Shown here piece by piece: positions 12,936 through 17,932 of a stretch of DNA of 49,559 bases. Source of the stretch: a virus. Its lineage: Duplodnaviria; Heunggongvirae; Uroviricota; Caudoviricetes. Each line of letters begins with the position of its first letter. The first letter of the stretch is position 1. The stretch is taken from the IMG/VR virus record IMGVR_UViG_2563366953_000002, positions 1 through 49,559 of that record, one strand, 5' to 3'. A program made the translations under genes and the position numbers. Below the pieces are notes generated by a model. The model did no database searches and was not told the origin of the DNA. It was given only the letters and a program-made list of their open reading frames with translations.

Positions 12936-13034
12936 TTAAATTTAGAACTGTAAATAAAATTTAATCCTTAACCGGAGGGGGTTCTGCACCCTCAGAACAT
13001 CAGGATGCCGCCCGAAAGGGCGGTGGAGATAATA

Positions 13035-13550
13035 ATGGAAATAACCAAAGAACGATTATTGGAAATAGCAAATCTTAGTGATAGGGTATTAAGTGATGAG
13101 AGAATTATTTCTCCTGATGCTTATGAATCAGTTACAAGTATAGAAATAATAACGATGGCCAGGATGCTTCTTGCTTGCTTCAAAAAAGAATATAAAAAAC
13201 AGGTAGATAGCAATGCTAATATATATGATATTTTGGACAGTTGGGGAGCTTGGGCTGCAGCTGGAAATAGTTCTGTCAATTGGCGGAAAGTAGCTGATAA
13301 ATATAAAAGTGTTGTACCTTATGGTAAAAAACTACGTCGTCAGTGCAGCGATGATGAGGGGCGTATGATTGATGAATGGATATTGAGGCTAGGGGAATAT
13401 AAAAATGAAGAATATGAGTTAATTATATCTCATTTTGTTATGGGAATATCTTTGCGTTCTATTTCCAAAGGAAAAGGTTGTTCTGAAGGCACGATAAGGA
13501 AGAATTTGCAAACAGCACTTGGATTTATAGAAGGGATAAGTTTGTTATGA
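13035..13550 (+). CDS. Q-family antiterminator paralog 1 (QuuD-like domain with N-terminal extension)
   Basis: ATG at 13035 after GGAGATAATA. The C-terminal 100 aa (..DSWGAWAAAGNSSVNW...RRQCSDDEGRMIDEWILRL...ELIISHFVMGISLRSISKGKGCSEGTIRKNLQTALGFIEGI) aligns with my recollection of DLP12 QuuD. AT-rich coding sequence. Confidence 0.6.
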   Translation: MEITKERLLEIANLSDRVLSDERIISPDAYESVTSIEIITMARMLLACFKKEYKKQVDSNANIYDILDSWGAWAAAGNSSVNWRKVADKYKSVVPYGKKLRRQCSDDEGRMIDEWILRLGEYKNEEYELIISHFVMGISLRSISKGKGCSEGTIRKNLQTALGFIEGISLL

Positions 13551-13558
13551 TAAAAACT

Positions 13559-13585
13559 AGGGAGGCGAGTCACCTCCCTGGTTTT
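13559..13585. terminator. bidirectional intrinsic terminator
   Basis: Hairpin AGGGAGGcgagtcaCCTCCCT with U-runs on both sides, between the convergent Q1 gene and the membrane-protein gene, whose stop codon lies inside the stem. Coordinates approximate. Confidence 0.45.
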
Positions 13586-14118
13586 ACATTTTGTTTTAGC
13601 AATATTCTAATGTTTTGTCTAATTATGATGAGGCAATGCAAAAGGAGAATTATTGTTAATATGGCTAGCCAGACACAAAAGAGACATGCGTATAGATTTG
13701 TTGATAGCCCAATAGTGAATTGTGATATTGCTGTCGTAAGTGATAACAGTATGGCAGTGTTAATAAATGATGATAAATTATCTAATGGTTTATACAAATC
13801 ACCATCATTAATTTTATCAATTGGCGTGCCAGTGGCGTTACTGTAAATAGCTCTATAATCTGGAGTTGAAAAAACTTTGTCACGTAAATTTACTATGACA
13901 AAAGTGTGTAGGCTCAATAAAAATGAACCGACGGAAATAAATCCTGAGAAAAGATATCCGCGTAAATTTCTATGATAAAAATCAAAAAAAACTTCGCTAA
14001 CTCTTGGAGTGTTTTTGTATAACAAAAACAGCCCCAGTAATACTAGGGCAGAAAATCCAAGCAGTATCACGTATTGATGTTTTAATTTTCTATTTATTAG
14101 CCATTCATATAAAGGCAT
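13570..14118 (-). CDS. polytopic membrane protein (four predicted TM helices), cargo-operon component
   Basis: 182-aa ORF with ATG at 14118. Four hydrophobic stretches (VILLGFSALVLLGLFLLY, GYLFSGFISVGSFLLSLHTFVIV, FINTAILLSLTTAISQFTIGL, LYACLFCVWLAILTIILLLHCLIII); very AT-rich; the start overlaps the upstream ORF by 14 nt, suggesting translational coupling. Confidence 0.55.
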   Translation of the reverse strand: MPLYEWLINRKLKHQYVILLGFSALVLLGLFLLYKNTPRVSEVFFDFYHRNLRGYLFSGFISVGSFLLSLHTFVIVNLRDKVFSTPDYRAIYSNATGTPIDKINDGDLYKPLDNLSSFINTAILLSLTTAISQFTIGLSTNLYACLFCVWLAILTIILLLHCLIIIRQNIRILLKQNVKPGR

Positions 14119-15035
14119 ATCTATTAGCCCCGTTTAGTATCTCATCTTTTATCATACCAAAAATAGGGTTTGTTGTATAATTGTCGCTTGTCAATCCATC
14201 TACTTTTTCGGCAATTGTATCAAAATCGTACGATTCGAAGAAAGTTGGACAATTCATAAAATCAATGACTTTTTCAAACCCAGCATGATCTACAGCTGTA
14301 ACTCTTGCTTTAACTATCCCCCCCCATTTGTTTATAGATATCATACATATGTTGAGATAGCGCTTGGATTTTCGTCTTATCCCCAGCATTAAAAGTCATG
14401 TCTATAGTGGTAGTGTTTGCAAATGGTTCAAGAGCTGTCATTGGCCCACCTTTAAAATCGATATAATTAAATTTAAATATAGTTTTTTTAATTTCTTTGA
14501 ATTGCCCTAAGATTTTTTTTATATCATCTTTATTCGTCATAATTTGAAATGATAGTCTGTCCTTATATTTTTTGTTTACAGCTATGATTTCTTTATGCTT
14601 TGGTTTATCCCCTAATGCTTTAACTTCTTTAGCATTTAGTTCCCTAATAAATTCATTGCTAATTGTCTGAAAGTGAGAGAACAGATTGTTCAGACTGCAT
14701 GAACCACGGTGGTACATGTAAAGTCCGGTAAGATTGGATTTTTTTATTAAGAAAAAATTGAAGTTGGCAAGTTTATCATTGCCCGCAAGATCTTCGATTT
14801 TCAGCTGAAACTTTCCACCCGTAAATTGTGATTTACAGTTCTTTTTTTGGTTTCGAAAGGTTACCACCAGACCATAATAATAATCATCATTTACGTCCGA
14901 TATCAGTATCCTACGAGTATAGTCGATACGGTTATGCTCCCTTGTTGATGCTCTAATAAAAGCTTCCATCACATCAGCTGTGTTAACGTTTGGGTTTGGG
15001 TTACTTATTGAAAAACCAATGCTTTTAACTCTCAT
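14105..15035 (-). pseudogene. frameshift-interrupted cargo gene: 241-aa ORF (14310-15035) continuing in a second frame (14105 to about 14330) across a G8 tract
   Basis: ATG at 15035 after AAGGTTG. The upstream frame ends ..YKQMGGDS at 14310; the second frame (..WGGIVKARVTAV..) runs to 14105. The two frames cross exactly at CCCCCCCC (14318-14325 on the plus strand); a tract of 7 would give one ORF of about 309 aa. The second frame has no SD of its own. No catalytic motifs recognised. Confidence 0.5.
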
Positions 15036-15367
15036 TTAACAACCTTGATTGTAACAAATTAGCTAACTTTGATAGTTTATTAAAAACTTTATGCGTACGC
15101 AAAAACTATCAACCTCAGGAGGTTAGTTGCTATTCTATTTGCGAGCATTGTCAGTGAAAGAGTTGGCATGGATATACGTGATAGGTAAAATCATTGCGGG
15201 TGCTTGAGGCTATCTGCCTCAGGCATGAACACCAAAAGGCAGATAGAGAAAAGCCCCAGTTAACATTACGCGTCCTGCAAGACGCTTAACATTAATCTGA
15301 GGCCGATTTCATGCTAGACACATGTAGGTTAGCCTCTTACGTGCCGAAAGGCAAGGAGAAGCAGGCT

Positions 15368-15523
15368 ATGAAGCAGCAAAAGGCGATGTTAATCGCCTTG
15401 ATCGTCATCTGTTTAACCGTCATAGTGACGGCACTGGTAACGAGGAAAGACCTCTGCGAGGTACGAATCCGAACCGGTCAGACGGAGGTCGCTGTCTTCG
15501 TAGACTACGAATCTAGAGAGTAA
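15368..15523 (+). CDS. hok: Hok/Gef-family type I toxin
   Basis: 51-aa product MKQQKAMLIALIVICLTVIVTALVTRKDLCEVRIRTGQTEVAVF... matches my recollection of Hok/Gef toxins nearly residue for residue. The ORF track reports the same frame from 15311 as a 70-aa ORF whose extra N-terminus is probably not translated. Structured leader upstream and hairpin plus U-run downstream. Confidence 0.8.
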   Translation: MKQQKAMLIALIVICLTVIVTALVTRKDLCEVRIRTGQTEVAVFVDYESRE

Positions 15524-15593
15524 GAGTGACCAGGCGAGGGATTTCTCCCTCGCCACCTCTGATGAGTCAGGCATCCTCAATGCACCCACACTT

Positions 15594-15620
15594 AACCCGC
15601 TTCGGCGGGTATATTTTATC
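15594..15620 (+). terminator. intrinsic terminator after hok
   Basis: CCCGCttcgGCGGG followed by TATATTTTA. Coordinates approximate. Confidence 0.5.
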
Positions 15621-15991
15621 TGTGAATATTTTTATAAAAATAATGCCCACGCACAGCATAAAACAAAAAGTATTACAGATAAAAAAGGAACGTAATGTGC
15701 AGATTTGTTGTTTTCCATATTTACTCACCTTAATATGATTAATCCTGATAGGGTTGTTATTTCAGCGGTTTTCAAATGAGATATTATGGTGATCTGGCAG
15801 ATTTGCATAACATTAAAATTTAATTTGTTTAACCGCTTTTAATAATAAGCGTTGTTTTTATCCCAGCAATTTGTTGTTTGGTTTTTATTCCATCAATGTG
15901 GGGGCTTTACACTGGAATCAGTTTATTTATACTTTATACGTCAGCCTGAACAACTGGCATCTGCTGCACTGCGCCATCGAGAGATTGAGAA

Positions 15992-16591: not shown

Positions 16592-16881
16592 TGGTGGACT
16601 TACGTAAAGCGACGCGGGGGCAGATGTGCACCGTCAGAATTCCTGGCTACTGCAATCACGATCCGGAAACGTCTGTGCTGGCGCATTACCGACTGGCGGG
16701 AACGTGCGGAACAGCGATAAAGCCACACGATATGCAGGCAGCGATTGCCTGTAGCTCGTGCCACGATTTAATCGACGGGCGGGTAAAAACCAGCGATTAC
16801 ACCAAAGAAGAATTACGCCTGATGCATGCAGAAGGTGTTTTTCGCACACAAGAAATCTGGAGAAAGGAGGGATATTTATGA
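16591..16881 (+). CDS. Cys-rich nin-region protein (YbcO/DUF1364-like)
   Basis: 96-aa ORF; ATG overlaps the upstream stop (TAATG); several Cys/His clusters (..CTVRIPGYCNHD.., ..CSSCHDL..); size and position match YbcO-like proteins upstream of Q. Confidence 0.45.
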   Translation: MVDLRKATRGQMCTVRIPGYCNHDPETSVLAHYRLAGTCGTAIKPHDMQAAIACSSCHDLIDGRVKTSDYTKEELRLMHAEGVFRTQEIWRKEGYL

Positions 16882-17414
16882 TTTACCCAACGAATACAGG
16901 AAAAAGCGGAGAACACCTTCGTCTCACCACGCTGGAAAGTGTCTGGATTCAGGGAAAACTACGTATGTGGGGGCGCTGGTCGTATATTGGCGGCGGCAGG
17001 TCAGGGAATATGTTTAACCAGTTGCTGGCATCCCAAAAAATGACAAAAACAGCCATCAATGAAGCCCTGCGCAGATTGAAAAAAGCGGGAATTGATAAAC
17101 CAGAGTTGGAAGCATTTTTGCGTGAGATGATCGAAGGAAAGCAAAAAAGCTGGTTAACTCACTGCACTGATGCAGAGGCACTAAAAATTGATAGTGTTAT
17201 AGGTGAAGTTCTGGCGGATCATCCAGGACTACTAAATGTCCTGAGTCAGCGTTATGTGGGGCGAGGGATGAGTAAGAGAAGGATGGCAGAGTTATTAAAC
17301 GAACAGTACCCAGAGTGGGCGTTGATTACATGCCGACGTCGTGTTGAGCAGTGGTTGCGTGTTGCTGAGTTCATTTTGTATTCACCTATGAGAGAAGCGT
17401 TCGATTATGCTTAA
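16878..17414 (+). CDS. Q-family antiterminator paralog 2
   Basis: ATG at 16878 overlaps the upstream stop, after AAGGAGG. Shares the WG.W...HCTDAEA...LSQRYVGRGMSKRRMAELLN...RRRVEQWLRVAEFI architecture with paralog 1 and QuuD; lies upstream of the tRNA and lysis genes. Confidence 0.55.
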   Translation: MIYPTNTGKSGEHLRLTTLESVWIQGKLRMWGRWSYIGGGRSGNMFNQLLASQKMTKTAINEALRRLKKAGIDKPELEAFLREMIEGKQKSWLTHCTDAEALKIDSVIGEVLADHPGLLNVLSQRYVGRGMSKRRMAELLNEQYPEWALITCRRRVEQWLRVAEFILYSPMREAFDYA

Positions 17415-17778: not shown

Positions 17779-17854
<76 letters not shown>

Positions 17855-17857
17855 TAT

Positions 17858-17932
<75 letters not shown>

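Follow-up and report, generated by a model that had tools for sequence, protein, structure and literature searches.

We analysed a stretch of viral DNA of 49,559 nucleotides (positions 1 to 49,559 of IMG/VR record IMGVR_UViG_2563366953_000002, Caudoviricetes), to which we refer as the window, and in particular a hok-like toxin locus in its early/nin region. This locus lies between a two-gene cargo operon, which is transcribed from the opposite strand, and a gene encoding a DUF1367 protein, and the intergenic stretch between toxin and cargo contains a 10-bp inverted repeat. Judged by its sequence, the segment 15163-15616 is a type I toxin-antitoxin module of the hok/mok/sok kind, complete and intact, and belongs to the hokW/hokD lineage of lambda-like prophages. 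The locus and the repeat are very probably two independent things, namely an intact hok module and an inverted repeat that belongs to the promoter region of the adjacent, divergent cargo operon. The module itself is already known, in the sense that a prophage system closely related to it has been annotated and tested by experiment.

The hok/mok/sok module

The hok gene encodes a small membrane toxin of the Hok/Gef type of about 50 aa, which matched the Pfam family HOK_GEF (PF01848) with an E-value of 1.1e-22 and 79.8 bits (cut-off 22) and which fell into PHROG 251 ('MokW-like host killing'). The product was identical to HokW of phage 933W at 49 of 51 positions, to the product of the hokD gene of Escherichia coli E7-1N7 at 48 of 51, to HokC/Gef of E. 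coli K-12 at 40 of 51 and to the Hok of R1-type plasmids at 22 of 52, and a 100% identical Hok is encoded by ten IMG/VR phage contigs. A mok-like frame with its own ribosome-binding site starts 5' of hok and overlaps it in the same reading frame, an arrangement that was also found in 933W, in K-12 and in the IncFII locus; its product shared 67 of 70 residues with MokW (933W) and 50 of 70 with MokC (K-12). Upstream lies a predicted sigma-70 promoter, for the -10 hexamer of which 933W has TAGAAT at the matching position, and the hok messenger would start near 15198. The initial annotation of this DNA had described the 51-aa product as a near-exact Hok/Gef match with a long structured leader and a terminator, and these three descriptions all held. 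As checks it had proposed RNA folding of the region, a comparison with hok/sok and chromosomal hok loci and a search of the minus strand for a Sok-like promoter and terminator, each of which gave a positive result at the sequence level.

The leader (15198-15367) matched the Rfam family RF01794, which carries the name 'sok', with 121 bits (E=1.8e-28, gathering score 59) over 15198-15373. Because this match lies on the plus strand and ends at the hok AUG, RF01794 is a model of the hok mRNA leader and not of the antisense RNA. A match to this family gives no strand for the antitoxin RNA, and an automatic annotation would put Sok on the wrong strand. The leader has blocks in common with K-12 hokC and with the IncFII hok/sok locus, among them GGGTGCTTGAGGCT in the 5' element of the messenger.

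The 419-nt RNA starting at 15198 folded with a minimum free energy (MFE) of -172.7 kcal/mol (z=-9.3 against shuffled sequences), and the MFE structure is that of an mRNA closed by pairing of its 5' and 3' ends (the tac/fbi pairing), in which the mok start is hidden. When this structure was compared with 54 distinct homologous hok loci, 95% of the cells were standard pairs, against 33-41% with the partners slid, and 13 pairs had changed on both sides, in helices 2, 5, 6, 16 and 17 and recurrently in helices 2, 5, 16 and 17. The closing 5'-3' pairs were kept at 98% in these loci. When the RNA was cut to 15198-15568, i.e. with the last 48 nt taken off, the mok region was freed and a hairpin at 15299-15336 appeared in the predicted MFE structure, a hairpin that is also present in the RF01794 consensus. 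In these models, refolding after 3' trimming is predicted to expose the Sok-target hairpin at the mok start.

The initial annotation had left mok and the antisense Sok RNA unmapped, and both can now be placed in the annotation of the window. On the minus strand we found promoter-like hexamers followed by a putative antisense RNA that lies in cis over the mok start and ends in a candidate terminator hairpin. The -10 hexamer reads TAACCT or TAATCT across the 54 related loci. In the predicted fold of the 71-nt RNA (-28.8 kcal/mol, z=-5.0) the first 15 nt form a free 5' tail, behind which come a long hairpin and a U tail; the free 5' tail is complementary to 15305-15319, which covers the mok AUG. 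The annotated sokW of 933W is likewise antisense, with its 5' end 9 nt inside mokW, and the 5' end of sokC of K-12 is similarly located inside mokC.

The stretch around the mok start that is the target of the Sok 5' tail (15303-15325, alignment columns 107-131) was the most variable part of the 54 hok loci, which were otherwise 84-96% identical. E. coli genomes that have any hok locus have a median of two and up to nine of them, and variability at the Sok target could keep such co-resident hok/sok copies from cross-talking.

These features are consistent with the established mechanism of the family, from which the locking and refolding steps for the window copy were taken. The full-length hok mRNA would be locked because 15562-15587 in its 3' region pairs both with the 5' end (15198-15209) and with the region of the mok start (15311-15323). 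Trimming of the 3' end would then allow the mok region to refold into the hairpin, upon which mok would be translated and the coupled translation of hok would yield the membrane-damaging peptide. The short and unstable Sok RNA (15319 to about 15249, minus strand) would pair with the mok start and so block translation of mok.

The hok loci of K-12 are largely inactive, and the window locus might be a decayed and silent copy like several of those. We consider this very unlikely. The T run behind its terminator hairpin is indeed interrupted (GGGTATATTTTAT, against GGGTTTTTT in most loci), and expression of the window copy is assumed by analogy, but this variant of the terminator was found in several other loci, and the promoter, the leader, mok, hok, the Sok promoter and RNA, the fold-back region and the terminator hairpin are all intact and match those of active relatives. 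The locus moreover contains neither insertions nor frameshifts.

Two other elements were noticed. In the AT-rich spacer just past the hok terminator lies an imperfect 20-nt inverted repeat (15614-15684, 80% complementary, arms 31 nt apart). A second type I toxin-antitoxin locus is present in the window at 1557-1735, where the Rfam family RalA, the antitoxin RNA of the RalR/RalA system of Rac-like prophages, matched with 191 bits.

Table 1. Features of the hok locus, the adjacent cargo operon and the conserved block, with their positions in the window unless another locus is named
Feature	Position	Strand	Description and basis
hok/mok mRNA promoter	15163..15191	+	TTGGCA (15163-15168), 17 nt, TAAAAT (15186-15191); sigma-70; consensus scan, 10/12 matches
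full-length hok mRNA	15198..15616	+	170-nt leader, mok/hok coding region and 3' untranslated region; from the fold, the 54-locus alignment and the start of the RF01794 match
5' element (tac-like)	15198..15209	+	pairs with 15575-15587 in the MFE fold
mok-like open reading frame	15311..15523	+	70 aa, in frame with hok; GAGG at 15299-15302, 8 nt upstream; from the list of open reading frames
hok toxin gene	15368..15523	+	51 aa; AAGGAG at 15353-15358; from Pfam, PHROG and identity to HokW
3' fold-back (fbi-like) region	15562..15587	+	15575-15587 pairs with 15198-15209; 15562-15574 pairs with 15311-15323 (mok start region)
intrinsic terminator of hok mRNA	15595..15610	+	hairpin from the terminator scan; compensatory changes in helix 17
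Sok promoter-like hexamers	15326..15354	-	TTGCCT (15354-15349), 17 nt, TAACCT (15331-15326); read from the sequence
Sok-like antisense RNA	15249..15319	-	about 71 nt; coordinates transferred from 933W sokW
inverted-repeat arm TTGATAGTTT	15069..15078		overlaps predicted cargo -10; script check
inverted-repeat arm AAACTATCAA	15103..15112		matches conserved backbone stretch AAACTATC beside the core; script check
conserved core TTTTTGCGTACGC	15088..15105	minus-strand reading	contains GCGTACGC; predicted -35 TTGCGT = 15102-15097
cargo gene 1	14105..15035	-	RexA-like by fold; frameshifted into 241 aa + 94 aa at the 8-C run 14318-14325
cargo gene 2	13570..14118	-	182-aa membrane protein with 3-4 hydrophobic segments; always follows gene 1
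conserved block in other loci	L086-L205; L206 6190-6280; L207 3501-3596; L208 2501-2594		lambda-like prophages including SfII, a Stx2a phage and DLP12

The inverted repeat and the predicted cargo promoter

The two arms of the inverted repeat are exactly complementary and are located 34-77 bp before the start codon of the cargo operon (15035). The initial annotation was right about the perfect arms and their positions, but the palindrome that it had put at their centre is not central: GCGTACGC, which occurs once in the window, is found at 15093-15100 with its centre at 15096.5, whereas the centre of the repeat is at 15090.5, 6 bp away. A general repeat search at two settings did not list the 10-bp repeat, which was confirmed by script. 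The whole window contains about 10 perfect 10-bp repeats of such kind, against a rough chance expectation of about 3 in 49.6 kb, and the inverted repeat alone is therefore not compelling.

It had also been suggested that the repeat forms part of the fold of the hok mRNA. The one thing that speaks for this is its proximity to hok, the probable 5' end of the mRNA being 86 bp downstream. The repeat lies on the far side of the hok promoter, with its end 51 bp before the -35 of hok, and both the RF01794 match and the leader blocks common to K-12 hokC and the IncFII hok/sok locus start at 15198. Homology to other hok loci likewise begins downstream of the repeat. A 601-bp query found hok homology in 4722 E. 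coli genomes, in only 10 of which the match covered at least 80% of the query; most of the matches listed start at query position 118-156, corresponding to 15157-15195 in the window, and E7-1N7 is the only one among them that spans the repeat. The hok matches in phages begin at 15157-15195 as well, and 933W shows no similarity upstream of the promoter. Because the repeat lies upstream of the hok promoter and outside the DNA that hok loci have in common, it is placed outside the hok module and its RNA, and a role in the hok fold is exceedingly improbable.

The position of the repeat points instead to the cargo operon, for which a promoter was predicted on the minus strand, consisting of TTGCGT (15102-15097), a spacer of 17 nt and TAAACT (15079-15074). 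The inverted repeat at 15069-15112 would then belong to the promoter region of the divergent two-gene, RexAB-like operon and not to hok. Each arm has its own counterpart in related DNA: the left arm covers the -10 region TAAACTAT, which is common to close cargo homologues, and the right arm equals the backbone stretch AAACTATC beside the core, for which the consensus is GCGTACGCAAAAACTATCG in 81 distinct contexts among the matches listed. We looked for the repeat in 11 distinct promoter variants located before cargo homologues (42-100% protein identity) and found it in the window lineage only; no symmetric site was conserved or co-varying in these 11 variants. The five copies of the window lineage (the window, E7-1N7 and three metagenome contigs) are identical at the repeat, but their agreement carries no weight because they are near-identical throughout (about 99.6% overall). 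Most likely, the repeat is a by-product of an adjoining promoter -10 and a conserved backbone and not a conserved operator.

A number of points weigh against this combination of an intact hok module and an independent repeat in the cargo promoter region. On the side of hok, the closing 5'-3' helix of the mRNA is near-invariant, with covariation neither supporting nor contradicting it, and its support is one of conservation; the Sok -10 TAACCT matches the consensus at 3 of 6 positions, which is too weak for a consensus scan. The start sites of hok, Sok and cargo are all inferred. On the side of the cargo, the promoter is a predicted one and TTGCGT again agrees with the consensus at 3 of 6 positions. 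A perfect 10-bp repeat with a loop of at most 60 nt arose in just 1.2% of the dinucleotide shuffles of the 127-bp intergenic stretch, and its arms fall on the predicted -10 and immediately 5' of the predicted -35, where a repressor might plausibly bind.

The last two points, together with the identity of the repeat in all five lineage copies, would favour a real, lineage-specific operator, in which a dimeric or tetrameric regulator binds both 10-bp arms and represses or activates the cargo promoter. The initial annotation had proposed such an operator, and of this proposal the overlap with the predicted cargo promoter stood. It had also named absence from homologous loci as an argument against, and the repeat is in fact absent from the 10 other promoter variants upstream of cargo homologues (42-74% protein identity). 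Furthermore, the arms are 34 bp apart from centre to centre, which is unusual for a simple dimer operator, the operon contains no regulator gene, perfect repeats of this size are common enough in the window, and each arm is explained separately by backbone and -10 region. DNA-binding proteins are encoded nearby, namely the Q-family protein at 13005-13550 and the RexA-like protein itself, and nothing ties either of them to the arms. We consider an operator unlikely, and the repeat should be treated as a regulatory element only if experiments support this.

The cargo operon of E7-1N7, of which the DNA is 99.6% identical, encodes proteins of 309 and 182 aa. In gene 1 of the window the run at 14318-14325 consists of 8 C (8 G in the gene sense), as compared to 7 in the four sister copies (E7-1N7 and the three metagenome contigs), which have an intact frame of 309 aa; the eighth C may have arisen by genuine mutation or by slippage, or it may be an error in sequencing the homopolymer. 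A copy of the cargo with about 76% DNA identity was found in another 212 genomes of E. coli; in the two loci examined, a Q antiterminator gene immediately precedes it on the other strand. A scan of genome contigs with a single cargo protein yielded one locus. Neither cargo protein matched a family in Pfam, PADLOC or NCBIfam. There being no PADLOC match, the idea that the pair is a Kiwa-like system or another of the known defence systems of two genes with a membrane protein was dropped. Gene 1 corresponds to PHROG 2802, a family of unknown function, and 53 homologous protein clusters were collected, from Enterobacterales where the organism is named and with full-length members mostly of 308-309 aa. 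The structure model of gene 1 (mean predicted local distance difference test score, pLDDT, 75.8) was most similar in structure to lambda RexA according to two methods, and on this basis the pair looks like RexA/RexB in fold, gene order and setting.

The conserved block and the cargo hotspot

Another finding was that the core of the predicted cargo promoter recurs in many other phages. A scan of IMG/VR with TTTTTGCGTACGCNTNA returned at least 120 stretches. The conserved block, from about -45 to +28 around the core, was carried by 97 of 126 matches, and the core TTTTTGCGTACGC was invariant before cargo genes in 92 phage contigs representing the 81 distinct contexts; these counts, too, refer to the matches listed. 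In the cargo direction, TAnnnT was present 16-18 nt past TTGCGT in 60 of the 81 contexts (background 7.8%). Conservation of the block stops at the cargo -10, and beyond it at least 25 unrelated protein families were found, many of which look defence-like. In the phage direction, TAnnnT directly precedes the conserved motif GTTAAGAGTGG in nearly all of the roughly 70 contexts that have this motif, and a terminator follows about 40 nt beyond it. No convincing -35 hexamer was present 16-18 nt upstream of the conserved TAnnnT, and the phage-direction promoter is therefore proposed from its position only.

Among phages with a short Q antiterminator, SfII, Stx2a_1447 and DLP12 have an arrangement in which the Q gene is followed by cargo on the opposite strand, then by the block and then by the late genes, the latter being S/R/Rz or a methylase gene, tRNAs and stx2. 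The cargo of DLP12 is nmpC, and its core has the sequence ACGTACGT. In the phage direction the block appears to resemble a late promoter with a short, terminated transcript, and in the opposite direction it appears to drive the inserted cargo; by its position, the block may be the region of the late promoter that belongs to this Q family, into which a divergent promoter for the cargo has been incorporated. Upstream of the E. coli cargo copies of about 76% identity, similarity to the window is limited to a short stretch around TTTTTGCGTACGC, and of the block the window itself has retained nothing but the core and the cargo -10. The core in the window would thus be a remnant of a block of about 75 bp that lies, in related phages, between a Q gene with opposite-strand cargo and the late genes.

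This raises the question what the conserved core around GCGTACGC is kept for. It may mainly be a relic of the late-promoter region of the short-Q phage family, e.g. a Q-binding site, that was carried along with the Q-like gene at 13005-13550, and not a cargo -35. The block sits exactly at the place expected of a late promoter in SfII, Stx2a_1447 and DLP12, about 35 conserved nt and a terminator come after it in the phage direction, TAnnnT stands directly before GTTAAGAG in nearly all of the roughly 70 contexts with that motif, and the 13-18 invariant bases exceed what a -35 hexamer needs. On the other hand, cargo located beside hok (in the window and in L022/L119) keeps the core only, having lost the phage-direction -10, the transcribed stretch and the terminator, which fits a role for the cargo, and in the cargo direction TAnnnT occurs at 16-18 nt about ten times as often as in the background. 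The two roles are also compatible with each other. We therefore treat the relic as a serious possibility, with somewhat less than an even chance of being correct.

Going one step further, the GCGTACGC core could be the remnant of a block with two back-to-back promoters, in which binding of Q to the core would turn the cargo off as late transcription is turned on, and the Q-like gene, the RexAB-like cargo and the core could have moved as a unit to the position next to hok. This is a tentative proposal, and we put its chances well below even.

The Q-antiterminator-family gene at 13005-13550 (181 aa, PF06530) is located in the early region, where it immediately precedes the cargo in convergent orientation, and a unit of late promoter and terminator of this PF06530 Q type was found nowhere in the window. 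The naming of Q families in 10.1101/651190 is ambiguous, one Pfam number being printed for two families, and for this reason we make no choice between type 21 and type 82 for this Q. A different Q-like gene (DUF1133) is present at about 16878-17414. Two tRNA genes (17779-17929) lie just downstream of the latter, a position like that of the tRNAs between Q and stx2 in Stx2a_1447. A second, independent cargo gene, with the TTTTTGCGTACGC core only and divergent beside hok, was observed in L022 (300-560) and L119; its protein starts with MEIKQVIVHELIKE.

For the short phage-direction transcript in DLP12, Rfam contained no family. The small RNA StxS of the Sakai Stx phages is derived from a 258-nt late-promoter transcript (PMC7547250); the stretch in the block is about 60 nt, and we do not equate the two. 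Searching the literature with block sequence strings returned only unrelated papers, the literature on Q proteins and late promoters did not yield a late-promoter sequence of this Q family, and no description of the block and the cargo hotspot was found in the searchable literature, which is weak evidence of novelty. The block with TTTTTGCGTACGC marks a hotspot for cargo in lambda-like prophages of a widespread group, and it might be used to search for new defence genes carried by prophages, the RexAB-like pair among them. The block and the hotspot are the sole part of this analysis that may merit follow-up.

Relation to known systems

The cargo pair is comparable to RexA/RexB of lambda in that in both the first gene encodes a soluble protein of about 300 aa and the second a small membrane protein with several passes, and in that both are prophage-carried and transcribed against the lytic genes; the structure of lambda RexA that was compared with the gene 1 model is described in PMC11077077. 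It differs from RexAB in lacking a sequence-level match to any Pfam, PADLOC or NCBIfam model, and the 182-aa membrane protein has no detectable similarity to RexB.

The hok module shares with the hok/sok system of R1/IncF plasmids the in-frame mok, an antisense Sok over the mok start, the GC-rich 5' element and the 3' fold-back, as well as several leader blocks in the IncFII locus (GCTTGAGGCT, GGCAGA, AGCCCC, AGCCTCTTAC and CAAGGAGAAG). The plasmid system, with 22 of 52 Hok residues in common, is carried on a plasmid and acts by post-segregational killing. The chromosomal hokC(gef)/mokC/sokC locus of K-12 is closer (40 of 51 residues in HokC), and the 5' end of its sokC lies 9 nt inside mokC; it differs from the window in having an IS186 copy annotated 20 bp from hokC, and the Sok hairpin of the window is 21 nt longer than that of the K-12 hokC locus. 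The K-12 hokD(relF) locus enters the comparison by name, RefSeq calling the near-identical E7-1N7 gene hokD.

The closest relatives are the loci of phage 933W and of the Sakai prophage VT2-Sakai (Sp5), which are about 93% identical in nucleotides to the window from the mRNA 5' end through the fold-back region and in which hokW, mokW and sokW are annotated. They resemble the window in the position of Sok relative to mok and in being carried by a lambda-like prophage. They differ in their genomic position, the window copy being located in the early/nin region, and by a few bases around the mok start, where Sok pairs; in 933W, moreover, the promoter and the DNA upstream are different, and the two Hok proteins differ in their last residues (SRE against SEK). 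The hokW-sokW pair of Sp5 was proven to be a working type I system that depends on RNase III and Hfq (PMC8621323). It speeds lysis and phage release upon induction, and a mutation in the sokW promoter abolishes the antitoxin activity (PMC8621323). Toxicity of Hok and its neutralisation by Sok are thus demonstrated for the 93%-identical Sp5 copy and, by analogy, may be expected of the copy in the window.

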